A DNA stretch of 64,000 nucleotides from a virus: positions 105,764 to 169,763 of IMG/VR virus record IMGVR_UViG_3300032223_002232; one strand, 5' to 3'. This document shows, in pieces, positions 3,947-63,998 of the stretch (positions are counted from its first letter, which is position 1; every line of letters starts with the position of its first letter). The notes beneath the pieces are model-generated. The model saw nothing but the letters and a program-made list of their open reading frames with translations. It ran no database searches and was not told where the DNA came from. The translations under genes were made by a program, and so were the position numbers.

Positions 3947-4631
3947 TATAATATACAGATGTTGCAATGCAGAGATAAATCCACCATTTAAGTGGGTTAG
4001 ACCACCTTGGTTTAATAAATTAGCATGTCTTAAATCATTTTTAAAATCAGTAGACTCTAATAAATTTTATATAGGTAAAGTTATTTTTGTTCATGATGGT
4101 CCAAAAGGAGAACTTTATGATAATATTCCAAAAGAATTTGAAATTATTTCAGTTGATTACAAAGATAATGAACTTAGTTTATTAGAAACATTCAAAGTTG
4201 CTGATAAATTAAAAAATAATGTTTATTTTGTGGAAGATGATTATCTACATTTAAAACATTCTATTCAATATATTGCTCAAGGCGTCGAAAACTTTAAACT
4301 TGTCACTGGATATGATCATTTAGATCGTTATAAGCGAGACGATGATATAACTTTTGGTAAAGAACATATAGCTTTTTCTAAAAAAACTAATTGTCATTGG
4401 AGAACAGCAGAATCAACGTGCTGTACATGGGCAACTACAAGAGAATTATGGCGTGGTGCGGTTGGAGATTTTGCAAAAACTTATAGATTACAAGATCGTC
4501 AATTATTTAGAGGTCTTTATAATCAACATAACATAAGACTTTGGAATCCAATACCAGCAGTTACAACACAAGTTGATATAAATTTATCACCCGGTATTGA
4601 TTGGGAAGCTTTTCAATCTAAATTAATTTAA
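3936..4631 (+). CDS. Putative glycosyltransferase (GT-A fold)
   Basis: IFVHDG and YFVEDDYLH motifs. Confidence 0.7.
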   Translation: MSLDIIYRCCNAEINPPFKWVRPPWFNKLACLKSFLKSVDSNKFYIGKVIFVHDGPKGELYDNIPKEFEIISVDYKDNELSLLETFKVADKLKNNVYFVEDDYLHLKHSIQYIAQGVENFKLVTGYDHLDRYKRDDDITFGKEHIAFSKKTNCHWRTAESTCCTWATTRELWRGAVGDFAKTYRLQDRQLFRGLYNQHNIRLWNPIPAVTTQVDINLSPGIDWEAFQSKLI

Positions 4632-4632
4632 T

Positions 4633-5352
4633 ATGGATAATATTACTCATTCAGTTTGGGTAGGTTTAAATGATCTTTCTTTGATGGAAAGATTAACTTT
4701 ATCTTTATTGGTAAAAAATGGTTACAATCCAATTCTTTGGTGCAACAATGAATTAAAAAATGTACCAAAAGGTGTAACTTTAAAACAAATACCTAAAGAT
4801 ATTATTCAACCAATAGGATATAGGGGGAAACCAAATAATACTTTTAATGGTGGTATTGGTTCTTATGCTCTTTGGGCTGATTATTTTTCATTTTATACAT
4901 TATACATGGAAGGTGGGTTATGGGTTCAAATGGATGTTGCAATAACAAAACCAATTGTAAATGAAAAAGAATATTGGTTTAATCCTTGGGCAAATGGTGT
5001 TGGTGTTATGGTATTAAAAATGCCAAAAGGTAATATTATCTGTAAAGATATATTAAATAGAATACATCCTCATGTTTTAAATGGGTTTGAAAGTTCATAT
5101 TGGGAAGTAACAATGGAATTATTATCATTTTTGATTAAAAAATATGATATTCTAGATCAATCATATATATTTGGTGACGAATATATTGATTGTGGTGGGA
5201 ATCCCAATTCAATTTTTAGAAATCCCTCTGATAAGAACTATCAAATAATACATTGGTCGAATGCATCACATATTACAGAAAAAAATAATCCAATAGTTAG
5301 TAGTGAATATCATAGATTATGTCTTGAATGTGGTTTATTAGATAATAAATAA
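4633..5352 (+). CDS. GT32/DXD-type glycosyltransferase-like protein
   Basis: HSVWVG, ADYF...LY..GGLWVQMDV, IIHW. Confidence 0.7.
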   Translation: MDNITHSVWVGLNDLSLMERLTLSLLVKNGYNPILWCNNELKNVPKGVTLKQIPKDIIQPIGYRGKPNNTFNGGIGSYALWADYFSFYTLYMEGGLWVQMDVAITKPIVNEKEYWFNPWANGVGVMVLKMPKGNIICKDILNRIHPHVLNGFESSYWEVTMELLSFLIKKYDILDQSYIFGDEYIDCGGNPNSIFRNPSDKNYQIIHWSNASHITEKNNPIVSSEYHRLCLECGLLDNK

Positions 5353-5356
5353 GAAA

Positions 5357-5902
5357 ATGAGCATAGAAGAACTATATATTCAGAATAAAGAAAACCCTTC
5401 CGATATAAATGAGCATCTAGAGACTCTTTATAAGTACGCTAAAGAGTGTAATACCATTGCAGAATTTGGTCTTAGATGGGTTTGTAGTTCATACGCTCTA
5501 GCTCATGCTAGACCACAAAAATTAATTTGTGTTGATATCAATAATCATGGAAACGTTGACAGTTTTATTGAATTATGTAAGATGGAAAATATAAATGCAG
5601 TATTTCATCAAGCAGATACAAGAAATTATGAATTGGAAGAGGTTGATATGCTTTTTATAGACACTCTTCATACATTTGATCAGTTAACAAAAGAATTAGA
5701 AATACATCCACCAAAGGTAAAAAAATACATGATGTTTCACGATACTGTTTCATATGGTAATGTCGATGAAATGACAGGTCAAACTGGTGAAAATCATGGT
5801 TTAATACCAGCAATTAAAAACTTTTTAAAGAATAATCCACATTGGCAAGAGCTTGAAACTCATACAAACAACAACGGTTTAACCATTCTTAAAAGAGTAT
5901 AA
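5357..5902 (+). CDS. SAM-dependent methyltransferase (Methyltransf_24-like)
   Basis: IAEFG, DMLFIDTLH, MFHDT. Confidence 0.8.
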   Translation: MSIEELYIQNKENPSDINEHLETLYKYAKECNTIAEFGLRWVCSSYALAHARPQKLICVDINNHGNVDSFIELCKMENINAVFHQADTRNYELEEVDMLFIDTLHTFDQLTKELEIHPPKVKKYMMFHDTVSYGNVDEMTGQTGENHGLIPAIKNFLKNNPHWQELETHTNNNGLTILKRV

Positions 5903-5909
5903 AAAAGAA

Positions 5910-5937
5910 TTGCAAGTTTCAATATTCTGTATACAAT
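5910..5937 (+). promoter_or_regulatory. Sigma70-like promoter for gp46
   Basis: TTGCAA-16 nt-TACAAT, ending 6 nt before GTG 5944. Confidence 0.6.
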
Positions 5938-5943
5938 ATAGGC

Positions 5944-7740
5944 GTGAAGAATATTGTTTTTAGTAAAATAAAGATTCAAAACTTTCTATCTATTGGTGAA
6001 AATCCAATTGAAATTGATTTTATCAAAGGTGTAACCATTATTACTGGTGAAAATAAAGATAAGGGTGGTAAAAATGGAATTGGTAAAAGTACTATAGCAG
6101 ATGCATTATATTGGTGTCTGTTTGGTAATACTATTAGAGAGTTAAAGAAGGATAAGATTCAACATAATAAAAATAAAAAGGAATGTGAAGTAATATTACA
6201 ATTTTCCGTATCAGATGGAAAGAATGTTACATCATATACAATTAAAAGAATTCTTGATCCAGCAAAAATAGAAATTTCATCTGGTGATAATGATTTAACT
6301 CTATCCACAATTCCCAAGAATGATGAATTTATTAAAGAATTAATTGGTGCTAATGAAGAAGTGTTTAATAATGCAGTTGTAATGTCATCAAACAATACAA
6401 TCCCATTCATGGCTCAGAAAAAGACGGATAAAAGAAAATTCATTGAAGGTATTCTTCAATTAAATATTTTTAGTGAGATGCTTCTTAAAACAAGAGCAGA
6501 ATATAATGACATAAAAAAAGAAAATGATCTATTGAGTAACAATTTTGTCAATGAACAACGCATGTTATCAACATTAAATGATAATAAATCAAACTTTGAT
6601 GATAGTAAATCATCACGCATTAGTATATTCTTAGAAAAAATTAAAAATACATCAGAACAGATAGATTTTTTAAATAAACAAAACATACCTGATGTTAAAA
6701 CTATAAAAGATAATATTAAAAAGTTAGAAGATAAGAAAACTGAACTAGGCGAATCATTAAAAGAAACAAATAAGAAGATTATTGACATTGGTAAACAATA
6801 TACGTCTATATATGACAAGCTAAGAGATGCAAAAAATGATAAGAAAAAGATTTTAGATAAAGGTAATACTTGTCCAACTTGTAATAGGTTATATTGTGAA
6901 GACGATTTAGATCATGTTGCAAAAGAAATTGAAAAATTAGATAAAATTATTAATGATAATCAACCTATTTATGATGATTTAATTGAAACTAAGAAAGAAA
7001 ATGAAACTCTTGGTAGTAAGATCGTTGATAAAATTGAAAAAGTAAAGGATATGATAAAGGATCTAAATGATGATATAACCAAAGCATCACTTCATGATCA
7101 AAAAATTAAAACTTTAACTGAAAAGATTACTGAATATAGAGAAAATATTCGTGAAATTGAAACAGAAACGTTTAAAGATGATAGTAAGATTACGGAATGT
7201 GAAGATAACATTAAAAAGATAGAGAAAAATCTTAAAAAGATTAAAAAAGACATGGCAGTTTTAGATTCCGTTAAGTTTATTGTATCGGAAGAAGGTGTTA
7301 AGACTTATATTGTTAAAAAAATCATTAATGTTCTTAATACTCGTCTTAACTATTATCTTAAAACTCTTGATGCTCCATGTAAATGTGAGTTTGATGAGAT
7401 GTTTGAAGAGATTATCTACAATGATCAAGGTAAAGAGTGTTCATATTTTAATTTTAGCGGTGGAGAACGTAAAAGAATTGATACAGCAATACTTTTTACA
7501 TTCCAAGATATCATGAGATGTCATTCTGGAACATCATATTCACTTAACATTTACGATGAATTATTTGATTGTGCATTAGATACAAAGGGAACTGATAAAA
7601 TACTTCAGATTTTAAAAGAAAAGGTTGAAAAATACAATGAATCAGTGTATATTATAAGTCACAAATCAAACGATTTAAGTAACATTGATAATGTAATCTT
7701 TTTAGAAAAAGAAAATGGTGTTACAAAAATTAAAACTTGA
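5944..7740 (+). CDS. 46: Recombination endonuclease ATPase subunit (T4 gp46, SbcC/Rad50-like)
   Basis: Walker A GKNGIGKST, coiled coil with CPTC zinc hook, FSGGE signature, YDE, ISH. Confidence 0.93.
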   Translation: MKNIVFSKIKIQNFLSIGENPIEIDFIKGVTIITGENKDKGGKNGIGKSTIADALYWCLFGNTIRELKKDKIQHNKNKKECEVILQFSVSDGKNVTSYTIKRILDPAKIEISSGDNDLTLSTIPKNDEFIKELIGANEEVFNNAVVMSSNNTIPFMAQKKTDKRKFIEGILQLNIFSEMLLKTRAEYNDIKKENDLLSNNFVNEQRMLSTLNDNKSNFDDSKSSRISIFLEKIKNTSEQIDFLNKQNIPDVKTIKDNIKKLEDKKTELGESLKETNKKIIDIGKQYTSIYDKLRDAKNDKKKILDKGNTCPTCNRLYCEDDLDHVAKEIEKLDKIINDNQPIYDDLIETKKENETLGSKIVDKIEKVKDMIKDLNDDITKASLHDQKIKTLTEKITEYRENIREIETETFKDDSKITECEDNIKKIEKNLKKIKKDMAVLDSVKFIVSEEGVKTYIVKKIINVLNTRLNYYLKTLDAPCKCEFDEMFEEIIYNDQGKECSYFNFSGGERKRIDTAILFTFQDIMRCHSGTSYSLNIYDELFDCALDTKGTDKILQILKEKVEKYNESVYIISHKSNDLSNIDNVIFLEKENGVTKIKT

Positions 7741-7769
7741 ATTGTTAAACAATTTTTCTAAATTTACAT

Positions 7770-9071
7770 ATGGCATTAAAAATAAAAGACAACAAAAAAG
7801 ATAATAATTTTGTATTTGCATACAATCCAATTGCCACAACAATTCCAAACCCCCCACCAGCACTTCCTGTTGGAATGCCGACATATAGTTACGCTGGTTT
7901 AAACCCAATTTCTGCACCAAAAACACCAGATCTAGTAATGCCAGAACAAGGATTACCTAGAGCAATTAATTATTATGCCGATTATGGTGGTTGTGGATAT
8001 TGGAGAATGATTTGGCCTGAGTTTGCGCTCAACCAATACAATAAAGCTTGTATTTCTGGTTTAACTCAAATGATTTTAGACATTAGATTCTATCAAGGTA
8101 TTAAAACCATTAGATTCCAGAGGCAAGCTACACCTATTCAGAGAGATTTTGTAAAGGAATTAAGAAAAGCAAGTGAACAAATGGGCTTTAAATTAATGTA
8201 TGAAGTCGATGATATCGTCTTCAAAGAAGATATTCCTGACTATAATCGTTGTAAGGATGCATTTGTTGATGATACTATTATTAATAGCATTCTTGAGATC
8301 ATGGGGATGATGGATGAGATTACAGTCACATGTAAATACATGAAAGACTATTATATTGAAAAGACAGGTAATAAAAATATTACAGTTATTCCAAATTATC
8401 CACCTAAATTCTGGTTAGATCGTTTTTATAACAAAGAACGTGTTGCCAAACTATATGATCAATATAAGAAACGTCCAAGAATTCTTTATTCTGGATCTGG
8501 AACACATATAGACGTTCTTAATAGAACAGGAATGAATGATGATTTCAAACATGTTACCGATGCAATCATCAAAGCTCGTAAGAAATTCAAGTTTGTTTGG
8601 AAGGGATGCTTCCCGATGGCATTGAAACCATATATTGATAATGGCGAAATGGAGTTTATTGATTGGTCACCTCTTCCAGATTATCCACAAGGTCTTGTTG
8701 ACACAAATTGTAACGCTTCATTTGCACCATTGATTGATAATGTGTTCAATAGATCAAAGAGTAACATTAAAATTGTTGAAGCTGGTGCTTTAGGTATGCC
8801 CGGAGTGTATCAAGACATGTGTACATATGAAGATGCTGATTTAAAATTCAAATCAGGTGATGATTTAATTCAACAACTTGAGCATTTAACATCTGATTTT
8901 GATAGGTACATGGATTTTTCAAGTAAAGCTAGAACATTTACAGAGGGATTATGGTTAGAGGATCATTTAGATGAATATCAAGCACTTTACTTTACGGATT
9001 TTGGATCAAAAGAAAGAAAAGAGATGGCTCCTAATCTTATAAAGAACAATCCTGATCAAGATATTGCTTGA
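7770..9071 (+). CDS. Glycosyltransferase (GT-B/GT4-like)
   Basis: GCGYWRMIWP, YEVDD, YSGSGTH and APL..N.FNRSKSNIKIVEAG motifs typical of phage GT-B enzymes. Confidence 0.8.
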   Translation: MALKIKDNKKDNNFVFAYNPIATTIPNPPPALPVGMPTYSYAGLNPISAPKTPDLVMPEQGLPRAINYYADYGGCGYWRMIWPEFALNQYNKACISGLTQMILDIRFYQGIKTIRFQRQATPIQRDFVKELRKASEQMGFKLMYEVDDIVFKEDIPDYNRCKDAFVDDTIINSILEIMGMMDEITVTCKYMKDYYIEKTGNKNITVIPNYPPKFWLDRFYNKERVAKLYDQYKKRPRILYSGSGTHIDVLNRTGMNDDFKHVTDAIIKARKKFKFVWKGCFPMALKPYIDNGEMEFIDWSPLPDYPQGLVDTNCNASFAPLIDNVFNRSKSNIKIVEAGALGMPGVYQDMCTYEDADLKFKSGDDLIQQLEHLTSDFDRYMDFSSKARTFTEGLWLEDHLDEYQALYFTDFGSKERKEMAPNLIKNNPDQDIA

Positions 9072-9096
9072 TTAGTACACCATATTGGTACATAAT
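9068..9096 (+). promoter_or_regulatory. Sigma70-like promoter for DNA polymerase
   Basis: TTGATT-17 nt-CATAAT, 6 nt before ATG 9103. Confidence 0.6.
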
Positions 9097-9102
9097 TGGG
9101 TA

Positions 9103-11673
9103 ATGGCTTATAGAAATGTATATTATGACCCAAAGAATTCCAATATTCATCTTTGGGCATGGGATGAGAGTGGTGAAAGAACAAAGTTCATAACGAGTTA
9201 TGAGCCATATCTATATATTGAATCCGAAAATGGTACTGATGGTAGATCAATCTTTAATACACCTCTTAAAAAATTAAGTTTTAAGAATAGAAAAGCTCGT
9301 CAGACGTATGTTGATGAAACTCCAATTAAAAGATTGTTCTATAATATTGCGGTAGACCAGCAATTTCTTCTTTCAACGTATAAAGATGAGATTGATAAAC
9401 CAGAATTTGGGTCTCATCCGTTAAAAATATTTTATATTGATATTGAAACTTATGCTACAACGCATTTTTCAACACCAGAAGCTGCTACAGATCCAATTAA
9501 TCTTATAACAGTATACGATTCTTTATCGGAAAGATACTATACATGGGGGTGTAAGAATTACTCCACGATGGAAGAAGATGTAACTTACTTTAAATGTAAA
9601 GATGAAAGAGATTTATTAAAAAGTTTTGTTAAATTTTGGAAGAATGATCCACCAGATATAGTTACTGGATGGAATATTCATGGTTATGACATTCCATATA
9701 TCATGAATCGTCTTCCACAGATATTTGCAGATGACTATAATAAGAAATTATCACCAATTGAAAGTATTTATTTAAGAGAAAAAGCTGCTGTTAATAAACT
9801 AGGTCGTGCAATTGATCGTTGGTCTATTGCTGGCGTTAGTATTATTGACTACATGGAGCTTTATGAGTCTCTTTGTGGTGGTAAGAGGGAGTCTATGTCA
9901 CTTAATTACATATCAGAGTATGAATTAGGTGATTCTAAGATTGCAATTGGTAGCACATCACTATCAACTCTTGCTGATAGAGATTGGACTAAATTTGTTG
10001 ACTATAACATTCAGGACGTAAGACTTCTTATCAAGCTTGAACACAAATTAAAATACTTAAAACTTGTAAGAAACCTTGCATATCGTGGATTTATTCCTTT
10101 TGAAAAGTCTATGGGTAAAGTTGCGATGATTACTGGTGCTGTTGCACACGAAGCATTGAAACAAGATATGATAATTCCAACATTTAACATTCAAAATGTT
10201 AAACAGGAATTTAAAGGCGGCTTTGTTTATGAACCAATTAAAGGTTTATATGAAAATGTCGTAACTTATGATGCAAATAGTTTGTATCCTAATACGATTA
10301 TTACGTTAAATATTTCATCAGAGACTAAAATAGGTAAAGTTATAAATAAAGATGAAGAGTTTACCACTTTAAGATTAACAAATGGTCAGGAAAGAAAATT
10401 AAAGCATAGTGATTTTGATAAAATTATTCAAAGTGAAAAGCTTGCGATAACAAAATCTAATGTTTTATATACACAAAAGTTTAAAGGTATATTTCCAACA
10501 CTAATTGATAGACTTTACAACGAAAGAGTCAAAGCTAAGAATACAATGTTGGATGCAAAGAAGAAGTTAAAGAAAGCAAAAACTCCAGAAGAAATTGAAA
10601 CACTTGAAGAAATTGCAAATGATAACGATACATTATCAAATGTGTATAAAGTTTTCTTGAATTCAGTTTACGGTGCATTCTCTAACATTTATTTTCCATT
10701 GTTTGATATGGATCATGCTGAAAGCGTTACTTTAAGTGGGCAAGCTATTGTTAAAAGAGGACCAGAGATTATTTATGAGTACGCAAAGTCTCAAGGTTTC
10801 AATGGTAAGCTTGAAGATATTTTAATTTATCAAGATACGGATAGTGAATTCTTTTCATTTACTGAAATAATGAAGTTAAGAAATGTTTCTTTTTTAGAAA
10901 ATGGTGAAATTTCCAAAGAAGCATATGATATTATTTCTGAATACGGTGATATTCTCAATAAAGGTATTAATGATTGGGCAAAACAGGAATTTAAATCCAT
11001 AGACCCTAGATATGTCTTTAAACGAGAGAAGATTTGTGATGTTGCTTTATTACAAGCAAAGAAATTCTACATTCTACATATTTTAGATAAAGAAGGTGTT
11101 AAAACTGAAGAGTTTGAGTATAAAGGTATTGCTATTGCACAAGCAACATTCTCAAAAGAAGTTAAAGAACTACTTAAAGACATTGTACATTCATCACTCT
11201 TAGCGAAAAACAGAAGGACAGCTACTCATATCTTCCAAGAAGGTTATGAAAAGTTTTTAAAAATGTCGCCAGAAGAAATTGCTACTAGAAAAAAGATCAA
11301 TAATTATGAGAAGTGGGATAATATGATCGGTGATGATAGTGAATTTGGTAAAGGTACACCAATTCAGGTCAAAAGTGCAATGAATTTTAATGAAGCACTT
11401 GAAAAGTTAAACATTACTGACAAATATCCTGCTCTTAAAAGTGGAACAAAGATGAAATTCTTTTATTGTAAGAAAAACATATATGATTATGAAACTATTG
11501 GGTTTATAGATTACTATCCAAAGGAATTATTAGAAGTAGTTAAGCCAGATTACAGGTTTATGTTTGATAAAAACGTTGTTCCAGTTATTTCAAGAATATT
11601 TCAAGTTATTGGATGGCCTTTACCAGCTGTTGGTTGCGAAGAAGTCACTGATCTGATACAATTATTGTCATGA
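9103..11673 (+). CDS. 43: DNA polymerase family B (T4 gp43-like)
   Basis: Exonuclease motifs DIET, GWN..GYD, YNIQD; polymerase motifs YDANSLYP, K...NSVYG, YQDTDS; start moved to ATG 9103. Confidence 0.96.
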   Translation: MAYRNVYYDPKNSNIHLWAWDESGERTKFITSYEPYLYIESENGTDGRSIFNTPLKKLSFKNRKARQTYVDETPIKRLFYNIAVDQQFLLSTYKDEIDKPEFGSHPLKIFYIDIETYATTHFSTPEAATDPINLITVYDSLSERYYTWGCKNYSTMEEDVTYFKCKDERDLLKSFVKFWKNDPPDIVTGWNIHGYDIPYIMNRLPQIFADDYNKKLSPIESIYLREKAAVNKLGRAIDRWSIAGVSIIDYMELYESLCGGKRESMSLNYISEYELGDSKIAIGSTSLSTLADRDWTKFVDYNIQDVRLLIKLEHKLKYLKLVRNLAYRGFIPFEKSMGKVAMITGAVAHEALKQDMIIPTFNIQNVKQEFKGGFVYEPIKGLYENVVTYDANSLYPNTIITLNISSETKIGKVINKDEEFTTLRLTNGQERKLKHSDFDKIIQSEKLAITKSNVLYTQKFKGIFPTLIDRLYNERVKAKNTMLDAKKKLKKAKTPEEIETLEEIANDNDTLSNVYKVFLNSVYGAFSNIYFPLFDMDHAESVTLSGQAIVKRGPEIIYEYAKSQGFNGKLEDILIYQDTDSEFFSFTEIMKLRNVSFLENGEISKEAYDIISEYGDILNKGINDWAKQEFKSIDPRYVFKREKICDVALLQAKKFYILHILDKEGVKTEEFEYKGIAIAQATFSKEVKELLKDIVHSSLLAKNRRTATHIFQEGYEKFLKMSPEEIATRKKINNYEKWDNMIGDDSEFGKGTPIQVKSAMNFNEALEKLNITDKYPALKSGTKMKFFYCKKNIYDYETIGFIDYYPKELLEVVKPDYRFMFDKNVVPVISRIFQVIGWPLPAVGCEEVTDLIQLLS

Positions 11674-12176
11674 GTGTAAAATTAATATCAATAACAAAGC
11701 CAGAAATCGAAGGTGTTGATACAGCTGAAGATTTAATATCATATTGTGCAAGGGTTAGCAACCCTTGTCATCGTAGTTTTAGCTTTCAAGAGTTTAGTCA
11801 GAGATATTCAACAGCCACAGAACTTGAAGATATTGAATGGAGAATGCAAGGTAAAACCAATAGACAAGTTGGCGATGAAGTAATTGAATTATCATTAGAA
11901 TTACAAGACAAGATGTTTCAAGCACAACACCTTTCTTTAAAAATATACGATGAATTAATAGGTTTTGGTATTGCTAAAGAGTGTGCGAGAATGGTGCTTC
12001 CTCTTAACACAACGACAACGATTTACATGAATGGAACAATCCGTTCTTGGATACACTATCTTGAAATAAGATGTAAAGATGATACGCAGAAGAAACATAG
12101 GGAGATTGCAAACATGATTCGATCAATATTTACAAAACATTTTCCTACAATTGCAAAAGCGTTACAAGAAAATTAA
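11670..12176 (+). pseudogene. thyX: Flavin-dependent thymidylate synthase ThyX with an in-frame internal deletion
   Basis: CARVSNP joined directly to CHRSFSFQEFSQRY; ECARMVLP, GTIRSWIHY and TQKKHR present; the usual intervening H.SxFE segment and the first Arg of RHR are missing; only 168 aa. Confidence 0.7.
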
Positions 12177-12230
12177 TATTTTTTAAATTAATACTTGATA
12201 TTACATTAAATTCTGTTAAATTTATATAGT

Positions 12231-12623
12231 ATGACAACTGAAAACACAACAAAAACCCTCGTAGTAATCTTAGACACCATTGGTAGGACTGTACTCGGTG
12301 AGGCAGTAGATTCCCCAAAAGGAAACTTCTCCATCAAGAACCCTGTCATCCTTCATATTGTTCCAGCAGACAATAATGGAAAGATGTCAGTCCAACTTCT
12401 TCCTCTCTTTTTCAGAGAGTTCTTAGCAGACAAATCTGGTGATGTCACATTTACATATGATGCATCTCGTGTAACCAAGACTGATATCGACGCTCTTGAT
12501 TTCCGTCTCCAAGCACAATATGCTCAGATGTTCAATCCACAGAATAGCTTTGTTGCTGATCCATCACAGGCAGCACCAGCAAGTGATTCTGTAGTTAAGC
12601 TTTTTGACGAGGAAGCAAAGTAA
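12231..12623 (+). CDS. Conserved T4-like hypothetical protein (small beta-barrel type found near gp43/UvsX)
   Basis: IKNPVIL...QYAQMF pattern; codon usage of a highly expressed gene; followed by a hairpin. Confidence 0.65.
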   Translation: MTTENTTKTLVVILDTIGRTVLGEAVDSPKGNFSIKNPVILHIVPADNNGKMSVQLLPLFFREFLADKSGDVTFTYDASRVTKTDIDALDFRLQAQYAQMFNPQNSFVADPSQAAPASDSVVKLFDEEAK

Positions 12624-12651
12624 AAAGTACAGATCGGAACTGTATTCATTA

Positions 12652-12687
12652 AGAAACCCCAGAGGGCTTGACTCTCTGGGGTTTTCT
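12652..12687 (+). terminator. Intrinsic terminator overlapping the uvsX promoter
   Basis: AAACCCCAGAG...CTCTGGGGTTT stem followed by a T-rich run; TTGACT (12668-12673) lies at the loop and TATTAT at 12690-12695. Confidence 0.75.
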
Positions 12688-12702
12688 GTTATTATATTAT
12701 AT

Positions 12703-55059: not shown

Positions 55060-55086
55060 AAAAAAGCCATCTCACGATGGCTTCTT
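55060..55086 (-). terminator. Intrinsic terminator
   Basis: Minus strand AAGCCATC-GTGA-GATGGCTTTTTT after the gene at 55114-55488. Confidence 0.85.
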
Positions 55087-55113
55087 TAAATTGGTATAAA
55101 CCAAGAAGTAAAT

Positions 55114-55488
55114 TTACTTACGATACATGATTGCATTAGCAACATGCACAATATAATCATTTGCAATAGCAATCTTCTCTTCCATCCAAGGGTCAATGTT
55201 AGCACCATTTTCTAAACATGTAGAAATTTCATGTGCATGTGATCTGATTGTATGAAGATGGGATGCAACCATTCTTTGTTTCTCTTCTTCATTATCTTCC
55301 ATATCTTTAACACTAATATCATGTGTTTCAATATTATCACCAACATTATCCTCACCCATTTCAGACTCATGACCAAGTGACATTTCTTCACCATTTCCCT
55401 GCTCTAAATCATCTTTTGGTGCAAATTCTTTATCAAGAACTACATCATCATAAGCTTCCATTAATGAAATATAATCTTTTCTATTCAT
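55114..55488 (-). CDS. Hypothetical acidic late protein
   Basis: PWMEEKIAIANDYI motif recurrent in T4-like head-associated proteins; TAAGTA 6 nt upstream. Confidence 0.7.
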   Translation of the reverse strand: MNRKDYISLMEAYDDVVLDKEFAPKDDLEQGNGEEMSLGHESEMGEDNVGDNIETHDISVKDMEDNEEEKQRMVASHLHTIRSHAHEISTCLENGANIDPWMEEKIAIANDYIVHVANAIMYRK

Positions 55489-55525
55489 ATTTTATACTTA
55501 CATTTAAAGTCTATCAATTCAAAAG

Positions 55526-57469
55526 TTATTTTGTATAAACTGTTATTGGTGAAGCAACTGAACCAGTTGTAACGCCGTTAATTAAACTTATTGTTTGTGC
55601 AATATTATATATTGTATATGTTGATGTATCTAATATTGCTAAATTAATAGGGGTTAATGATGATACAGGTGAAAACACAGTCATTTCATAACCTTTAGTG
55701 TAATTTGGATTATCAATAACTTTAGAGGAACCTAATATAGTTGATCCACTTAAAGCAATTAATGTTGATCCAGCGGTTTCTATATTTGATCCACTTAATG
55801 ATACTTTTAAATTTTGTATACAATAATAAGGATAAGCTACTGGTGTAGTGAAGAATGAACTCAATGCAGGTAACGGTGATTGTAAATTTGGAGTTACTGA
55901 TGGAGTTGGTGATGGCTGAATAACATTATTAACACTTGTTGATGTAACTGTTGGAGTTGGTGTTTTTGTTAATGTTGGTGTAACTGTTGGTGTAATAGCA
56001 ACACTACTACTTGTTGGAGTTGGTGTTGTTGTTTTGGTAACAGTTGGAGTTGGTGTAATTGTAGCTGTAGGTGTAACAGGTAATGCTGTTGTGATAACAG
56101 ATGTTTTTGTTGGTGTTACAGTTACTGTGGGTGTTACCGTCAATGTTGGTGTAGATGTTACAAATGGAGTTGTAGAAATAGCTCTAGTAACCGATGGTGT
56201 AACTGTTACACTTGGTGTAGGTGCTGGTACAACAACTGGATTAAAAATGTTTCCAATGATTGGACTACCTAACCCTGTTGCGTAATCATAACCAGTTGTA
56301 GATGTATATCTGGTATTATTACCTGTTGTAATATCATTAAAGAAATAATTATAATTTGATGAAGCTAAATTATAAAAAGTGTTTTGTGCTGATCTTGAAT
56401 TAACCTGTGGTAATAATCCAGAACTAGCCATTCTTGCAACAAGTGCAGCCATTTGTGGAGCCGCACAACTAGTTCCTATGAAATACCCCCAACCAGCAAC
56501 ACCGTTTGTTATTGGTTGTGTGACATAAACTGGTACTGGTGAACCAGAGTTGTAAGAGATATCAGGTGTATATCTTGCACTTGTTGTTTGGAAAATTGTT
56601 TGATAGTCGGGTTTTGCAAATGTTGTACTTGGACCACTACCTCCTGCTGACCAAGTTGTTTCAACAAGTGGTCCCGGTGCTATCCAATAATTTGATGCAG
56701 AACCACCATTTAATTGTGAACCACCAACACTTACAACATCAGGTGATGTAGCAGGGAATGATGTTATACCTCCAACATCACCACTTGATACACAGAAAAT
56801 AGCTTTTTGATTTTTAAATACAATATCATTTAATGATGACATTGATGATGGTAAATTAAGACTTTCAGTAGAACCAAAACTCAAAGAAAATATTGTTGCG
56901 CTTAATTGAGTCATAGCGGCATAAACGCCTGTATAGAGCCAACTTGGATCAAGACATGTAATTAAAACTTTCTTTGCGGATGGAGCCATTGCATGAGCAT
57001 ATTGCAAATCAAGATTTGTTTCATAAGCCCAATTCATCCAATCTGCTGATGTAGCGGATGTAACAGTATTCCAACTTGGGATACCACCAACATAATAGTT
57101 ATCTACTGTTGTTTTTGGTAAACCAAACTGTGCACAGAAATAATCTAAATCTGTTTGATAATTTGGATTACCATATGCATCAACTATATAAATTGTCTGA
57201 CCTTGACCTAAATTTCTTACTTTATTGAAACCATAAAAAGCTGATAACTGTGATGGTACTAAACTTTTAATTGATAAAACATCAGGTACGTTTGGTGAAG
57301 GATTTACTATTTGTAAATCAGGTAATTTATCACCACTTGAAACCCAACCTATGCTTTTATTGTTAGCAAGATCTGATTTTGAAGTGTAATGCCAGCCTAA
57401 AAAGGGTTTAGCTTCTATTTTTAGGTCTTTTAATTCTTGTGGTAGTGATACGTTTAATGTTTTATCCAT
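55526..57469 (-). CDS. Sedolisin/kumamolisin (peptidase S53) domain protein with a Thr/Pro-rich linker
   Basis: G.GQTI.IVDAY, ETNLD (E-x3-D), SSGD.G, VGG, GGSG.S, PDIS, GTSCAAP, DITTGNN, GYD.ATGLGSP, then PT repeats. Confidence 0.88.
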   Translation of the reverse strand: MDKTLNVSLPQELKDLKIEAKPFLGWHYTSKSDLANNKSIGWVSSGDKLPDLQIVNPSPNVPDVLSIKSLVPSQLSAFYGFNKVRNLGQGQTIYIVDAYGNPNYQTDLDYFCAQFGLPKTTVDNYYVGGIPSWNTVTSATSADWMNWAYETNLDLQYAHAMAPSAKKVLITCLDPSWLYTGVYAAMTQLSATIFSLSFGSTESLNLPSSMSSLNDIVFKNQKAIFCVSSGDVGGITSFPATSPDVVSVGGSQLNGGSASNYWIAPGPLVETTWSAGGSGPSTTFAKPDYQTIFQTTSARYTPDISYNSGSPVPVYVTQPITNGVAGWGYFIGTSCAAPQMAALVARMASSGLLPQVNSRSAQNTFYNLASSNYNYFFNDITTGNNTRYTSTTGYDYATGLGSPIIGNIFNPVVVPAPTPSVTVTPSVTRAISTTPFVTSTPTLTVTPTVTVTPTKTSVITTALPVTPTATITPTPTVTKTTTPTPTSSSVAITPTVTPTLTKTPTPTVTSTSVNNVIQPSPTPSVTPNLQSPLPALSSFFTTPVAYPYYCIQNLKVSLSGSNIETAGSTLIALSGSTILGSSKVIDNPNYTKGYEMTVFSPVSSLTPINLAILDTSTYTIYNIAQTISLINGVTTGSVASPITVYTK

Positions 57470-57516
57470 GACGATATACTTATCATAAAATATATCAAAT
57501 TTATATTATAAAAAAA

Positions 57517-57579
<63 letters not shown>

Positions 57580-57589
<10 letters not shown>

Positions 57590-58212
57590 TTATATTTCTG
57601 TAAATAAGATTCTACGACCTCATTGTAGGAAGACTTACTCCTTTTTAAAGCTTTTGCAATCTTTTCAAATTCTTTATCTAAAAATTTTAAGTTTGGATCT
57701 AAATGGTGTTCATCAGCTTGAAATTTTACAGCAAATCCACCAGCAGCAATCCATTCATCTACATTCTTCTGTCTATCATCAATTAATATATTAGGTGTAC
57801 CATCTTTCTCTACAGCAGGAGCATCTTTAGCTTTGTTAGGAGTAAAACATCTTTTTAATGGAGCAGGATGTAAATGTTCATCAATCCATTTATTCTTACC
57901 AAGAATACACTGTTGTATGAAATATCTATTTCTATCAGAATTAGAATCTTCTCTTTCATCACATAACGGTGTTGAACAAATATAATAGCCAACACCACCA
58001 GTAAACTTCATTATTTTATCCAAAAGTATACTATTTGATTTAAACTCTGGTAAATCCTTGAAAAAATCATAAACATCACTTTGTTGAGCCATTACTTTAA
58101 AGAAATCATCAACGGATACATCTTTATAGCTTTTTTTACCTGATAAGTTTGTTATGACCTTATAAAGATCAGCTAACACACCATCCATATCTAAAAATAC
58201 TTTATTTTTCAT
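57580..58212 (-). CDS. 5'(3')-deoxyribonucleotidase (HAD, NT5C-like)
   Basis: FLDMDGVLAD, CSTP, K..WI, LIDD...N...W..AGG. Confidence 0.9.
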
Positions 58213-58420
58213 TATTATCTATTGTTTTAACTGTAAATTTATAAATTAACATATCATGACATTTTTTGGGTAGCAATTCTTTTTTTGAACTTAATATTAA
58301 TTTATTTTCCATTTCAGATATTTTTTTTGTTTTTTCTTTTAAACTTTTTTCAGCTTCTTCTTCTGTTTTATGAAACCCTGTCCAATTAAATAAATTTTTA
58401 TTTATTTTAGGGGTTTCCAT
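58202..58420 (-). CDS. Hypothetical protein
   Basis: 72-aa ORF with TAAATA 6 nt upstream. Confidence 0.55.
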   Translation of the reverse strand: METPKINKNLFNWTGFHKTEEEAEKSLKEKTKKISEMENKLILSSKKELLPKKCHDMLIYKFTVKTIDNNEK

Positions 58421-58434
58421 AATATATATTTATA

Positions 58435-59109
58435 TCATACAACACCCTTATATTGTTTATTAATTTCATTTATTTCTTTTGATAATTGATTAATGATTTT
58501 ACTTTCTTTCTTATTAAGACTTTTGTTTATGATTTCTAAATCAGTTAAGAGATAAGCTTGAATTTCATCCTTTAAAACTTTACTTGAATATCTTAATTCG
58601 TATAATGCATCCCTGAATTTATTAAAAATTTTAACAGGAATCTTGTTTATAACTTTATTAACATCTTTTTTATAAAATGGATAGAGATAATAAAATGCAT
58701 GAGCAACTTCATGATCAATCGTTGTTTTTGAAAGTGGATCTGAACCAATTACATAATATTTGTCATCCATTTCAACATAATCTCCAATCTCATTTAAAAT
58801 ATTATAAAAAACATTATCATATTGATTCTTATCTTCAATTTTATCTGAATAATAAAGTTGATGTATTACGTCACTTGGAACATTAAAACCAGCCCAATCA
58901 ATCGGATAAGTGAAACAACCATCTTCTCTACGCATTGAATATATTCTTTGAAACTCCATCATTGTAAAGGGTTTACCTTTTATTTCTTTATAAGGTGATT
59001 CATAAAACTCTTGAACTCTACAAAAAGTCATTGCAAGATCATAAGAGTTTTCAATACCAACAAGAAAAACCTTTGGGTGTATTTGTTCTATTGTATATTT
59101 TACTTTCAT
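58435..59109 (-). CDS. Hypothetical HExxH protein
   Basis: F.RVQEFYESP, W.GFNVP, DHEVAHA, DEIQAY; start 59109 or 59121. Confidence 0.7.
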   Translation of the reverse strand: MKVKYTIEQIHPKVFLVGIENSYDLAMTFCRVQEFYESPYKEIKGKPFTMMEFQRIYSMRREDGCFTYPIDWAGFNVPSDVIHQLYYSDKIEDKNQYDNVFYNILNEIGDYVEMDDKYYVIGSDPLSKTTIDHEVAHAFYYLYPFYKKDVNKVINKIPVKIFNKFRDALYELRYSSKVLKDEIQAYLLTDLEIINKSLNKKESKIINQLSKEINEINKQYKGVV

Positions 59110-59540
59110 AGTTTTATCCATTTGAATTTTGATTTAGGGAGTTTATAAAACATTTCACCTTTGCTAACATATTTGTTAGCAGACTCTTTTAAATTATTAT
59201 CGGTTAAATGTTTTTTAATTTCATCACCCATAATAACACCAATATGAGAATAATCTCTGGATATGATTATATATGAAACATTATTCTCTAAAAAGAATTT
59301 AGCTTTTCTTTCGGGTAAATTAACATCACTAAAAGGAAACTCAGTTTTATTCCAAACTAATCTCCTCTCTAACTCAAACTTCATGGATTTATCTTCTGAT
59401 ACTAAATCAACACCATATTTGTCTTCGTTATCTTTAAGAATTACATTGTATTTTTTAAAAAAGTTTATAACAATTTCTCTTGATTTGGGATCATTCTCAT
59501 TGAATAATTTTTGATCAAACTTTTTATAAAAACCTTTCAT
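59106..59540 (-). CDS. Hypothetical protein, PD-(D/E)XK-like
   Basis: YGVDL...FELE.R..W, ERK.K. Confidence 0.6.
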   Translation of the reverse strand: MKGFYKKFDQKLFNENDPKSREIVINFFKKYNVILKDNEDKYGVDLVSEDKSMKFELERRLVWNKTEFPFSDVNLPERKAKFFLENNVSYIIISRDYSHIGVIMGDEIKKHLTDNNLKESANKYVSKGEMFYKLPKSKFKWIKL

Positions 59541-59560
59541 TATTTATAAGTATATGAATA

Positions 59561-59986
59561 ATGGTTATGAATGTCAATCTTAAAGAATTAAGTATAAAAT
59601 TAGCAGATCAGATTGCTTCATTTATAGGTTCTTGGACTTTTATTATAATTCAATCTACAATTCTAACCATTTGGATTTTAATAAATGTAATAGGATTAGT
59701 TAATTATGATCCATACCCATTTATTCTTTTAAATCTTTTTCTTTCATTTGAAGCTGCTTATGCCACACCTTTAATTCTAATGTCATCCACAAGACAAGCA
59801 GAACAAGACAGAATACATTTAATGAAAGATGTTGCATTGGATCAAGAATCAAATCTTGTTATTAAAAAATTAGCAGAAGATATAAGAATTGATAAAACAG
59901 CTTTAGAATATATTATAAAAGCTAAAGATGAAAGACATGAAATGAGACTTTTGCTAGAAGAAATTCGAGAAATTTTAAAGAAATAA
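59561..59986 (+). CDS. DUF1003 family membrane protein
   Basis: AD.IA.F.GSW.FII, W..IN, DPYPFILLNL.LS..AA...P.ILMS..RQ..D. Confidence 0.88.
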   Translation: MVMNVNLKELSIKLADQIASFIGSWTFIIIQSTILTIWILINVIGLVNYDPYPFILLNLFLSFEAAYATPLILMSSTRQAEQDRIHLMKDVALDQESNLVIKKLAEDIRIDKTALEYIIKAKDERHEMRLLLEEIREILKK

Positions 59987-59989
59987 AAG

Positions 59990-60060
59990 CTACCCCTCAT
60001 GGATTCGAACCATGACTCACAGTGCCAAAAACTGCGGTGCTACCGTTACACCAAAGGGTA
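59990..60060 (-). tRNA. tRNA-Gln(TTG)
   Basis: TACCCTT/AGGGGTA acceptor; GCAGT-TTTTGGC-ACTGT; CATGG-TTCGAAT-CCATG. Confidence 0.92.
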
Positions 60061-60065
60061 TTAAC

Positions 60066-60725
60066 TTATAAAAATGTTTGATCTTTATCTTTTGGAATTG
60101 GTTCGTAATAAACGTAATTAGGTTTTACCGTATATCCAAAATTTTGTAAAGTTATTTTTGCATCATTTGCAGCCTCGCCATCACCACAAAAATAATCTGT
60201 ATTGTGATCTTCAAAATAATCAACTCTTTCTTTATTTTTATTGTAATGTTTAATATGTTCTGGGGTATAATTCCATGCCCATTTAATTTCACGATATTGT
60301 GTTTTTAAAAATCTTTTAAATCTATCCCAAGGTGTTGAAACTTTACTGTAATTAAAATATTCCCAACGTCCAGCAACCGTATCATATGTTTTAAAATCAA
60401 ATAGATTATAAGAAGTATATCTTAAACTTTTTATTGCAATCCAAATTGATTTCAATCTATCCCAAAAAGTATAAGTCATTTTAGGATTGAGTAAAGAATC
60501 TTGTTGTATAGATCTTACGTTTCTGCATTTTGATGTTAAACTCGTATCAATAGTTTTTACAGTATGATTTGCAAGATATTGATCTACATCAACATTATCT
60601 TCTTTGCAAATTTCTTTAAGATAATCTGCTACAGTTGGTAAAGACATAGTTTCTCCTGTTTTTCCTGTTTCAATAGGAAACCCATGAGGAATGCCTTTAA
60701 AAGCTCTTGAAGTCGAATTGCTCAT
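60066..60725 (-). CDS. Hypothetical protein
   Basis: ATG 60725 directly after the purA stop; repeated (F/P)WDR.K segments. Confidence 0.65.
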   Translation of the reverse strand: MSNSTSRAFKGIPHGFPIETGKTGETMSLPTVADYLKEICKEDNVDVDQYLANHTVKTIDTSLTSKCRNVRSIQQDSLLNPKMTYTFWDRLKSIWIAIKSLRYTSYNLFDFKTYDTVAGRWEYFNYSKVSTPWDRFKRFLKTQYREIKWAWNYTPEHIKHYNKNKERVDYFEDHNTDYFCGDGEAANDAKITLQNFGYTVKPNYVYYEPIPKDKDQTFL

Positions 60726-60726
60726 A

Positions 60727-61722
60727 TTATATATTAGTCTTATCTCCAGAAAATACAATATCTTCTTTTGTTAATTCTGTACTAGTTGTAATATCCTCTA
60801 ATAAAAGTTCTTTCATTTTATCAAGACTTCCAGCAATTCTACCAGATAATCCAAAGCTATATCTAAATTCCCCAACCTCTTCTAATACATCACACTTATT
60901 AATAATGAGTTTAGTTACACCAGAAAGATTAATTGCTTCTACTAGCTTTTTTAAATTCAACCAATTAACAAGTCTTTTTCTACCAGTGGTCGTTCCCATT
61001 TCACCACCAATTTCAATAATCTTATCAAGAATTGGATCATCCCAAAGAGATTCGGGAAACAATGGATCTACACCACTTTTGGTATCATATATCTTTGCTA
61101 CACCAATAATATCTCTAATCTTTTTAGGTGAAAAACCAAGAGAACATGCATTATGTGGAAAGGTTTCAGAACTTGTGACATAAGGATAATCTCCCCAATT
61201 TATATCAAGCCAAATACTCTGAGCACCTTCACAAAGAATTTTTCCATCTAAATTACAATCCCAAATAAAATTTTTATTAAGATAATTCTTAACTTGCAAA
61301 CCAGATCTAACTGCTTTATCAGCATAACAAGGAGCAATACCCTGTCCAGTTGTTCCAAGCTTTGGTTTAAGAACATTTACATCATATAATATATGATCCT
61401 GTGTAATGATATGAGCATTAGGATGAACTTTGACCAAAGATGTATCAAAGCCGTTTTTGTCAAGGTAAGATATTTCTTCATAAAATTTATCTACATTAAT
61501 TACACAGTTAGGTCCAATTATCGAAGGTTTATTATGAAATACACCTGATGGAATTAAATGAGTTTTGTATTTGTTATCATTAATATAAACAGTGTGACCA
61601 GCATTTGGTCCACCATTCCAACGACAAACCATGTCATAGTCTTTAGCTAATGCACTTGAGATTTTACCTTTACCTTCATCTCCCCATGCAAGCCCCACAA
61701 TTATGTCTACAAAAGAAATCAT
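60727..61722 (-). CDS. purA: Adenylosuccinate synthetase, short form
   Basis: WGDEGKGK, GG.NAGHT, GTTGQGIAP.Y.DK, EGAQ, DYPYVTSS, GTTTGRKR, NK.DV. Confidence 0.93.
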   Translation of the reverse strand: MISFVDIIVGLAWGDEGKGKISSALAKDYDMVCRWNGGPNAGHTVYINDNKYKTHLIPSGVFHNKPSIIGPNCVINVDKFYEEISYLDKNGFDTSLVKVHPNAHIITQDHILYDVNVLKPKLGTTGQGIAPCYADKAVRSGLQVKNYLNKNFIWDCNLDGKILCEGAQSIWLDINWGDYPYVTSSETFPHNACSLGFSPKKIRDIIGVAKIYDTKSGVDPLFPESLWDDPILDKIIEIGGEMGTTTGRKRLVNWLNLKKLVEAINLSGVTKLIINKCDVLEEVGEFRYSFGLSGRIAGSLDKMKELLLEDITTSTELTKEDIVFSGDKTNI

Positions 61723-61758
61723 CCCACCTATAATAGATGGGATGTTTCATGAAGTCAA
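61720..61758 (-). promoter_or_regulatory. Sigma70 promoter of purA with an inverted repeat spanning the -10 and start codon
   Basis: TTGACT-17 nt-TATTAT, 7 nt before the ATG; CATCCCA(61720-61726)...TGGGATG(61738-61744). Confidence 0.65.
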
Positions 61759-61779
61759 CTAATTTTGTTTAAAAATTAA

Positions 61780-62019
61780 TTATGCCCAAGGGATTGAGGA
61801 CAATGAAAGAACTGCTGTAGCTTTTGCTGTTGCAGATGCATTTGTCCAATCACCAGCGGCTGTGTAATCTGCTTCACCCTTCCAGAGAACGATTGGTCTT
61901 GGGAGACCTTTGACTCTGGCGATGATTGTCTTCTCTGCGAAAAGATCTCTTACAGCAAGTACTTCTACTGCTGAAAGGGATACAGTCTGGAGAGGTTGTG
62001 TTACGACATTAATGCTCAT
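61780..62019 (-). CDS. Hypothetical 79-aa protein
   Basis: ORF with distinct, highly-expressed-style codons; late promoter and structured leader upstream. Confidence 0.7.
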   Translation of the reverse strand: MSINVVTQPLQTVSLSAVEVLAVRDLFAEKTIIARVKGLPRPIVLWKGEADYTAAGDWTNASATAKATAVLSLSSIPWA

Positions 62020-62130
62020 TGTGTATATTGGTTGATTGTTTATGGATTCGTTGTATTCCCCCTACACTCATAGGCGGCGATTCCTTTCTGATAATATTTA
62101 TCTTTGAGTGATACTATTTCTAGTAATTTT

Positions 62131-63519
62131 TTAAATAACTTCTGAAATAAATTGACGCAGTTTACCAGCAGCATTTCTTGGAATACTATCTACAAATACA
62201 AGATCCCATTGAAGATCTTTTGCTACTGAAACATACTGTACTTTTTTGATTCTAGCTAATTCGCTTTCATCTAATTGTCTACTTGTTACTAGATGTAACT
62301 CTATTTTTTCTTCTGTTTTCTGTATTAATTGAAATTCTCTTACCGCTTCAATATCACAGATTTTATAGTGATCAATATCGACTCTTCTTTTTTCTCCATT
62401 TATTAAAAAATAATCTTCTGCTCTACCTACAATTCTCGTGAGAGAAGGAAGACCTCTACCGCAAGAACAAGATCCTCCGACTTCCGCTTCATCTCCAATT
62501 TCATATCTAATAAGAGGCATAGAGAAATTATGTAAAGAGGTTACAACAACTTTCCCAATTTCTCCTTTTTTACAAGAATTACCTTGTTCATCAATTACTT
62601 CCAAGTAAACAGCTTCAGACATAACATGATAGTTTATTCCTTCTGGACATTGAAGAGCCATATAACCTGTTTCATTAGATGTATAGTTATTGTATATAGG
62701 ACAATTTAATACTTCCCAGCACAAAGCTCTAAGAGTACTATCTACAACTTCACTAATCGTCCAAGCTGATTCTATAAAATCTATTTTAATATTATTCTCC
62801 TTAAAATAAGAAAGAAGCAATCTTAATCCAGCAGGACGCATAAGCAAATAAGATGGCTTTCTTTTTAAAACATATTCTGCTTGTTCTGAAAGAGGAAGAT
62901 CGGGTTGAACTAATCCCATACGTCCAGTTTTAGCTATAAAAGAAACAGGAGGATTCCAAGTATTCCATATAATACCCGATTTATCTATTATTGTATTTGG
63001 ATCATTTATTAGTTCTTCCCTAACTTCTTTTCTAAGACCTCTAAAATTTGCTACTTCTTTACTTTCATCTACTTTGTTCCATATTAACTCTCTTATATGA
63101 CAACTCTCCCAAATTAAAGAATCCATTTGACTCTTCTTTACTCCAACTGGTTGACCTGTAGATCCTCCAGAATATGCCATATTACTATTACCAAAAGACT
63201 TTGGATAAGATGGAGCTATAAGTTGATCTTTAAGATTTCTAACATCAGATCTCTTTAATGTTGGTAATCGATTCCATATATCTAATGTCATCGGTTGTCC
63301 TTTAACAAAGCCAGCTTCTTTTAAATTCTTTGCATGAAAAGGAATAGTTGCAGCATGATTAGCTAAAAGCGTAAGTTGTTTAAATTGATTTTCAAGAATT
63401 TGTTCGTTAGGCAACCATTGTGATTGTTCAAACTGATGCTGTAATGCCATTAATGTTGCAGCATGCCCTACATGAACACAAGGCCATGTAACTCCTTCTA
63501 TATTAGAACTTAACTTCAT
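62131..63519 (-). CDS. Phenylacetate-CoA ligase/CapK-like adenylate-forming enzyme
   Basis: SGGSTGQP, YTSNETG..A.QC, G.VVVT.L.N..MPLIRY.IGD, CSCGR, GR..D, GK.R. Confidence 0.88.
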   Translation of the reverse strand: MKLSSNIEGVTWPCVHVGHAATLMALQHQFEQSQWLPNEQILENQFKQLTLLANHAATIPFHAKNLKEAGFVKGQPMTLDIWNRLPTLKRSDVRNLKDQLIAPSYPKSFGNSNMAYSGGSTGQPVGVKKSQMDSLIWESCHIRELIWNKVDESKEVANFRGLRKEVREELINDPNTIIDKSGIIWNTWNPPVSFIAKTGRMGLVQPDLPLSEQAEYVLKRKPSYLLMRPAGLRLLLSYFKENNIKIDFIESAWTISEVVDSTLRALCWEVLNCPIYNNYTSNETGYMALQCPEGINYHVMSEAVYLEVIDEQGNSCKKGEIGKVVVTSLHNFSMPLIRYEIGDEAEVGGSCSCGRGLPSLTRIVGRAEDYFLINGEKRRVDIDHYKICDIEAVREFQLIQKTEEKIELHLVTSRQLDESELARIKKVQYVSVAKDLQWDLVFVDSIPRNAAGKLRQFISEVI

Positions 63520-63998
63520 ATAGTGTGTTCTTTTCTAGAATAGAAATAATTTAATATGTTTTTTTCAATATCGATATTATTAATTTTTATTGTTCCGTTC
63601 TCTTGATACACAATATCGTTTTCTACATCTACTATGTTGTATAGTAATTTATATCTATTAAAATAATTTCTATTTTCAATATCTCCGTGAAAATAATGTG
63701 TTATAGTTCCTTCTATACAACCGACTTTTGTACCTCTTGCTATATTAACATATTTTGTGTAGAAACTTTTATAAAGAACATTTAGTCTTAAATCAGGTAA
63801 ATCAAATGTTCCATCCATTGTACATAAAAGAAAACTATCTCCTCCACCTACAATACATCTATCAAAAAGACCTCCTATCTTGTCATAAAACTTTTTATTA
63901 ATAGCCCAAGTATGACCGGGGTGTCCTACTCGACTTTCATATCCTAATTCTTTTACTTTTCCATATGATAAGAATCCTTTTTCTTTTTCTGGATCAGG
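63516..63998 (-). CDS. Glycosyltransferase-like protein (partial, start outside the window)
   Basis: Frame open from the window end: GHPGHTWAINKKFYDKIGGLFDRCIVGGGD...HYFHG...R.Y..R. Confidence 0.65.
   Translation of the reverse strand, partial: PDPEKEKGFLSYGKVKELGYESRVGHPGHTWAINKKFYDKIGGLFDRCIVGGGDSFLLCTMDGTFDLPDLRLNVLYKSFYTKYVNIARGTKVGCIEGTITHYFHGDIENRNYFNRYKLLYNIVDVENDIVYQENGTIKINNIDIEKNILNYFYSRKEHTI

Follow-up and report, generated by a model that had tools for sequence, protein, structure and literature searches.

The 64,000-bp stretch of viral DNA analyzed here (the window), which is the terminal part of the 169,763-bp IMG/VR record IMGVR_UViG_3300032223_002232, does not contain a single CCWGG site, and neither does the remainder of the record. 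The genome, with 31 % G+C, belongs to an uncultured, virulent-type, T4-like and AT-rich phage of a lake bacterium. At least 15 short words, CCWGG among them, have been purged from it, and this loss is probably driven by host restriction pressure, exerted by sequence-specific nucleases of the restriction-modification type. The avoidance of restriction sites by phages is textbook knowledge, of which this genome provides a new and very clean example, in which none of about 70-108 expected sites is present and all 60 codon pairs follow the same rule.

An exhaustive count of the window yielded 0 CCAGG and 0 CCTGG, while 39.2 CCWGG sites are expected under a maximal-order Markov model. For the whole record, with both strands counted, the same model gives 108.2 expected sites against 0 observed. 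A second expectation was obtained by permuting synonymous codons among positions, which keeps the proteins and the codon usage, and amounted to 70.5 ± 4.6 sites for the whole record, the lowest of 200 shuffles giving 56. The word is missing from all three frames, for which codon shuffling predicts 54.8 sites (Pro-Gly frame, i.e. at the dipeptide proline-glycine), 9.0 and 6.6, and the non-coding DNA of the record is likewise free of it. The sites were lost by synonymous W-to-S changes. The counts and frames are direct observations, as are the codon switches at homologous positions in related phages described below. Long-term selection against CCWGG is strongly supported by the combination of loss in all frames, on both strands and in non-coding DNA, the synonymous nature of the W-to-S changes, and the opposite codons found in relatives. 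An earlier note on this DNA had reported seeing no CCAGG or CCTGG and had proposed such selection, and the comparison with Markov and codon-shuffle expectations bears out both statements. It had also described CCSGG and GATC as frequent. This is true for CCSGG, with 26 sites in the window and 62 in the record compared to 8-19 expected, but not for GATC, which occurs 233 times in the window and is ordinary in the coding sequences (CDS) of the genome (536 vs 516 expected).

The effect is most visible in the choice of proline codons. Genome-wide, CCA (1591) and CCT (726) make up 92 % of these codons, in agreement with the dominance noted earlier, with CCC (119) and CCG (94) accounting for the others. 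Before glycine, however, all 60 pairs of the whole genome use either CCC (40) or CCG (20), and CCA and CCT do not occur at all. Given that CCC and CCG together reach 6 % in other contexts, the chance of this outcome is approximately 1e-72. All but one of the 26 CCSGG sites in the window encode Pro-Gly in frame within called genes, and the remaining one, at 63916, lies in an open reading frame (ORF) leaving the window end. This matches the roughly 26 Pro-Gly dipeptides, six of them in 21250-23286, for which only CCC and CCG had been recorded in the earlier note. The dipeptide itself has an observed/expected ratio of 0.38 in the whole genome; in matched loci centered on the large terminase TerL, the ratio is 0.79 for the clade of this phage and 0.92 for outgroups, which is a small difference.

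As the effect stands out most at Pro-Gly, translational or codon-pair selection favoring CCC and CCG before glycine codons could be considered as its cause. Such selection is extremely improbable, since CCWGG is also absent from the other two frames and outside genes, relatives use CCA or CCT at the same Pro-Gly positions, and the phage is without a tRNA-Pro. For annotators, this means that CCC or CCG before glycine is not translational in origin here. Mutational decay, in which Dcm-type methylation of the phage DNA followed by deamination of 5-methylcytosine (5mC) erodes CCWGG, is also very hard to reconcile with the data. One deamination product pair, CCAAG/CTTGG, is indeed moderately high (304 vs 218 expected), but the other one, CTAGG/CCTAG, is not raised (46 vs 57), and the main gain is in CCSGG (61 vs 7.6), which cannot be produced by deamination because W-to-S changes are not deamination products. 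Furthermore, the loss of CCWGG is total, and sister phages show the opposite pattern at the same codons.

The Pro-Gly dipeptide imposes a constraint of its own. Since proline is encoded by CCN and glycine by GGN, Pro-Gly is always written as CCNGG and always holds either CCWGG or CCGG, so that no silent change avoids both words. The use of CCC or CCG is thus the only escape from CCWGG at such a position, at the price of creating CCGG. There are 67 CCGG sites in the genome, 62 of which lie within CCSGG. In coding sequences, 60 CCGG sites are forced by Pro-Gly, and only 6 occur elsewhere compared to 58.5 expected (minimum of 39 in 100 shuffles). Because of this deficit outside the forced positions, CCGG must also be regarded as a purged word. 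The high number of CCSGG sites is a forced by-product of the avoidance of CCWGG at Pro-Gly.

How this conflict is resolved differs between close relatives, while the purge of unforced CCWGG is consistent among relatives that come from independent metagenomes. About 50 relatives were found as metagenomic contigs in IMG/VR, with TerL identities of 63-88 %, and five larger ones (G001-G005; the present genome is G000) were retrieved whole or in large part, G004 and G005 being the records behind the loci L006 and L008, where L numbers denote 20-kb loci. Outside Pro-Gly, CCWGG is purged in all five, with 0 vs 33.5 expected in G001, 0 vs 6.9 in G002, 0 vs 8.8 in G003, 0 vs 14.0 in G004 and 1 vs 17.4 in G005. 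Like the present phage, G001, G002 and G003 have recoded Pro-Gly to CCC or CCG. G004 shows the reverse, with 1 CCGG site vs about 40 expected and 20 retained CCWGG sites, all of them at Pro-Gly, and the loci L005, L012, L047, L050, L041/L063 and L076 follow its pattern. G005 is intermediate, as it uses CCA or CCT at Pro-Gly and has purged unforced CCWGG, whereas CCGG is only halved. This would fit a CCNGG- or CCSGG-type pressure, although the numbers are small. At conserved Pro-Gly positions, CCS in the present phage faces CCW in 13 of 14 cases in G004, 11 of 11 in G005 and 8 of 9 in L012, and the sister pair G001/G005 differs in this respect at 14 of 15 positions. In a maximum-likelihood tree of TerL, the CCGG-purging state is spread over three clades, each with its own support, that lie nested among CCWGG-purging ones, and the state changes at least three times.

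The fourfold degenerate sites have diverged heavily between these lineages, with identities of 0.50-0.53, and each purge pattern therefore reflects current selection and is not an ancestral leftover. A historical lag as the cause of the purge of unforced sites is unlikely for the same reason. Since neither word can be escaped at Pro-Gly, the codon chosen there records the costlier of the two pressures in each lineage: CCWGG would be more costly than CCGG for the present phage, and CCGG the more costly word for the three sister clades. Each site seems to be under selection on its own, as the unforced copies have been purged although the forced ones have to stay. Two explanations can be offered for this. 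The chance of escape may be roughly multiplicative over sites, in which case each removal would pay, or the enzyme that recognizes CCWGG may, like EcoRII, require two sites close to each other, in which case thinning would help. Taken together, the proposal, held with about even confidence, is that Pro-Gly is a pinch point for two host specificities, CCWGG and CCGG, at which this clade of lake phages has flipped between solutions at least three times while purging every unforced copy of both words. The proline codon before glycine would then read out the dominant specificity in the host population, and the retention of forced sites would reflect site-by-site selection or two-site enzymes. A literature search found no description of this forced coupling at Pro-Gly or of sister phages that repeatedly reverse it, which is not proof of absence. 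The opposite resolutions in sister clades amount to a natural experiment that compares the strength of two defenses and bears on per-site selection.

Two side observations concern CCWGG in other genomes. In G004 and G005, which keep CCWGG at Pro-Gly, TCCAGG (complement CCTGGA) is found in 0 of 12 and 1 of 12 expected cases, respectively, and the retained CCAGG sites are preceded by A or G and not by T, so that a longer avoided word may overlap CCWGG in these phages. The contigs L074 and L075, which are distant and T4-like (TerL 31 % identical, 42 % G+C), contain 1 CCWGG site vs 28 expected and 0 vs 21, and are also without CTGCAG and GGATCC. The same specificities may therefore be pressing on other phage lineages in these habitats.

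When all 4-6-mers are compared with their codon-shuffle expectation, from which the following observed and expected numbers in CDS are taken, CCWGG turns out to belong to a set of at least 15 erased words, most of which are palindromes of 4-6 bp of the Type II restriction type. The avoidance proposed in the earlier note is real, but CCWGG is no special case. Completely missing palindromes include CTGCAG (0 vs 33), CCATGG (0 vs 20), GGATCC (0 vs 10), CGCG (0 vs 20), TGGCCA (0 vs 20) and GAGCTC (0 vs 8), the last one accompanied by CAGCTC (1 vs 36). GGTACC and GGCACC (each 0 vs 14) jointly represent GGYRCC (1 vs 29), and TACGTA (0 vs 20) and CACGTA (0 vs 22) combine with CACGTG to YACGTR. CACGTC (0 vs 8) and, jointly, AGCGCC and AGCGCT (0 vs 15) are also missing, as is CCAGTC (0 vs 17), while CTCGA (2 vs 41), ACGGG (1 vs 26) and GGCGGA (1 vs 10) are nearly so. 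Variants that differ by one flanking base remain at normal levels, namely CAGCTG (55 vs 47), GGATCA (107 vs 106), CTGCAA (107 vs 106), AGGCCA (23 vs 19) and GGTACA (102 vs 112), and the same is true for GGWCC (71 vs 76) and AAGCTT (70 vs 58).

The purge pattern is both heritable and variable among the approximately 50 relatives, with a core and lineage-specific words. CGCG, CTGCAG, CAGCTC, CCAGTC, GGTACC, TGGCCA and ACCGGT are purged in all six genomes. ACGGG, CTCGA and YACGTR are purged in the present phage and not in G001, G004 and G005; ACGGG and CTCGA are erased only in its lineage and nearest kin. Conversely, the non-palindromic AGGCC is erased in G001, G004 and G005 (0/37, 0/22 and 0/27) and normal in the present phage (27 vs 35). 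To our knowledge, no enzyme has a specificity for AGGCC, ACGGG or CTCGA. As a separate observation, some words that are not restriction-like also deviate genome-wide: by the Markov model, CTTA/TAAG (ratio 0.68), AACC and CACA are strongly reduced and CACC (1.8x) and CGCC (2.8x) are high, and by codon shuffling TAAGTA is low (32 vs 132).

Host restriction enzymes are inferred as the selective agent, together with their enzyme types, from the specificity for short palindromes, the independence of frame and strand, the silent nature of the changes, and the variation among relatives. A phage with unmodified DNA would evade the nucleases of its hosts by not carrying their target words. One of these nucleases would have the specificity CCWGG, which is the site of EcoRII, PspGI and BstNI, and every such site would have been removed by synonymous substitution. 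In non-temperate dsDNA phages, Rusinov et al. 2018 (PMC6286503) documented avoidance mainly of orthodox Type II sites, and the specific and mostly palindromic footprint found here matches this pattern.

No C5, N6/N4, D12 or N6_Mtase methylase, no hydroxymethylase of the thymidylate synthase type (dCMP/dUMP) and no TGT/DpdA was found in the record, for which a completeness of 77 % is estimated. PF00145, PF02086, PF01555, PF02384, PF00303 and PF01702 are absent from it, with responding controls, and both methyltransferase ORFs encoded in the window belong to the small-molecule or sugar type. The phage DNA is therefore apparently ordinary and unmodified, although the absence of modification genes is provisional. 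The suggestion of the earlier note that no DNA modification protects the CCWGG sites is reasonable on these grounds.

A phage without protection could also lose these words for reasons other than cleavage by a host restriction enzyme. If a Dcm-type CCWGG methylase marked the progeny, Type IV or Type IIM nucleases of the next host would destroy the 5mC-containing DNA, and the target would be removed to avoid methylation. In this case, the word is likewise predicted to disappear from either strand and from every frame, and an avoidance of GATC tied to methyl-dependent enzymes is a documented exception (PMC6286503). However, an orphan methylase and a Type IV system would be needed for each of the approximately 15 words, and the avoidance reported for modification-dependent enzymes is weak and was ascribed to overlapping Type II sites (PMC6286503), which leaves this explanation improbable. 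Alternatively, the phage itself could encode site-specific nucleases that cut up the DNA of the host at these words, from which a phage lacking the words would be safe. The loss of unforced CCWGG and the core of CTGCAG, CGCG, TGGCCA and GGTACC common to all clade members could reflect conserved phage genes, and there is no modified base by which phage and host DNA could be told apart. Nevertheless, a dozen or more phage nucleases would be required, and the sole nuclease domains noticed belong to an HNH homing-type ORF and to the gp46/47 recombination nuclease. A search with the EcoRII-C Pfam family gave no match, but its control was silent too. In addition, ACGGG, CTCGA, GGCGGA, AGGCC and the CCWGG/CCGG flip vary among close relatives, which is better explained by variable host defenses, so that a phage-encoded weapon appears distinctly improbable.

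Several points weigh against host restriction as the driving force. Some of the purged words (CTCGA, ACGGG, CAGCTC, CCAGTC) are non-palindromic 5-6-mers, and we know of no enzyme for any of these. The 60 forced CCGG sites persist, and a plain CCGG cutter would still cut the genome; purging the other CCGG sites would be of benefit only if a per-site (multiplicative) or two-site model is assumed. The part of the genome outside the record could hold a modification gene. A scan of 185,579 species genomes with a TerL profile returned nothing that would lead to a host and its restriction-modification systems. Finally, Rusinov et al. (PMC6286503) observed that sites of Type IIG, I and III are avoided only to a small extent.

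The gene content of the window comprises a T4-type large terminase, a tail sheath protein, a family-B DNA polymerase, a Rad50-like gp46, a RecA/UvsX-like protein, gp32, a DnaB-like helicase, PhoH, an AAA ATPase, NrdA/NrdB, a short PurA-like protein and an HNH endonuclease, as well as five tRNAs, none of them for proline. The nearest cultured phages by TerL and DNA polymerase are rhizobiophages, cyanomyophages and Pelagibacter phage HTVC008M, which are only about 30-34 % identical, and no host can be inferred from them. Neither megablast nor tblastn with the portal protein against 50,697 phage records gave a match. The photosystem gene psbA was looked for and is absent, so that a cyanophage is not supported. 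The list of about 15 purged words is a testable fingerprint of the restriction repertoire of the uncultured freshwater host and could be used to match phage to host methylomes.

Shine-Dalgarno sequences are nearly missing in the genome, with a 4-mer core upstream of 20 of the 173 called genes, and G makes up only 5-15 % at positions -20 to -1 upstream of these genes. Many start codons directly follow an A/T-rich, -10-like box, and several genes share a conserved motif with a TATAAT-like box that stops a few bases short of the start codon. This pattern suggests leaderless or non-Shine-Dalgarno initiation. The HNH endonuclease ORF (54155-54739, minus strand) directly adjoins three tRNA genes (cluster at 54783-55019) and is probably a homing-type element. 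The PurA-like ORF (60727-61722, minus strand) encodes 331 AA, which is shorter than bacterial PurA, and is part of a viral protein family of about 330 AA, whose Atlas clusters have 60-150 members each. A PurZ-based 2-aminoadenine (Z) genome was considered and rejected, as in comparisons with structures this ORF is far closer to PurA (1e-55) than to PurZ (7e-17 and 7e-10).

Table 1. Positions in the window of the CCSGG sites and extent of the CCWGG-free region.
Feature	Position	Strand	Remark
Whole window and whole record, no CCWGG	1..64000	both	0 counted; 39 expected in window
Pro-Gly with CCC, ORF 3936-4631	4590..4594	+	frame 0
Pro-Gly with CCC, ORF 7770-9071	8799..8803	+	frame 0
Six Pro-Gly (21455, 21590, 22259, 22313, 22385, 22640), two CCG and four CCC, ORF 21250-23286	21455..22644	-	all frame 0
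Pro-Gly with CCC, ORF 23306-24454	23439..23443	-	
Two Pro-Gly with CCG (24791, 25280), ORF 24451-26028	24791..25284	-	
Pro-Gly with CCC, ORF 26978-28600	27162..27166	-	
Pro-Gly with CCG, large terminase gene 29221-31104	30311..30315	-	
Pro-Gly with CCC, ORF 31864-32946	32411..32415	-	
Pro-Gly with CCG, ORF 32956-35193	34118..34122	-	
Two Pro-Gly with CCC (37123, 37441), ORF 37011-37730	37123..37445	-	
Two Pro-Gly with CCC (38085, 38142), ORF 37757-38299	38085..38146	-	
Pro-Gly with CCG, tail sheath gene 38320-40890	40862..40866	-	
Pro-Gly with CCC, small ORF 40971-41240	41202..41206	+	
Pro-Gly with CCC, PhoH gene 41699-42580	42062..42066	+	
Pro-Gly, ORF 44000-44629	44121..44125	-	codon CCG
Pro-Gly with CCC, AAA ATPase gene 46789-48006	47327..47331	-	
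Pro-Gly with CCG, ORF 55526-57469	56673..56677	-	
CCSGG site, ORF leaving the window end	63916..63920		no frame given

Classical cases of site avoidance include Staphylococcus phage K, which has lost GATC, and T3 and T7, whose CCWGG sites are sparse and refractory to EcoRII. Like the site-avoiding virulent dsDNA phages (PMC6286503), the present phage has lost all or nearly all copies of short words of the Type II type, most of them palindromic, on both strands and by synonymous change, and it is of the lytic type and lacks genes for a protective modification. It differs from them in that at least 15 words are affected in one genome, and in the coupling of CCWGG to CCGG at Pro-Gly, which its relatives resolve in opposite ways. 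With respect to the EcoRII/Dcm system, the purged word is the same site. EcoRII is a Type IIE enzyme related to the CCGG-family endonucleases and needs two sites to cut (PMC2770665). The two-site requirement could explain why thinning unforced sites pays while forced ones remain. The sister phages that have purged unforced CCWGG and yet keep about 1 forced site per 3.8 kb provide only an indirect hint of a two-site enzyme, and a one-site enzyme of the BstNI/MvaI or PspGI type would leave the same footprint here. T4 and other Tevenvirinae resist restriction by means of glucosyl-hydroxymethylcytosine. The present phage shares TerL, the tail sheath, gp32, the gp43 polymerase, gp46/47, a UvsX-like RecA and NrdAB with T4. 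In contrast to T4, neither a dCMP hydroxymethylase of the thymidylate synthase family nor a DNA methylase was found, and the loss of sites takes the place of base modification.

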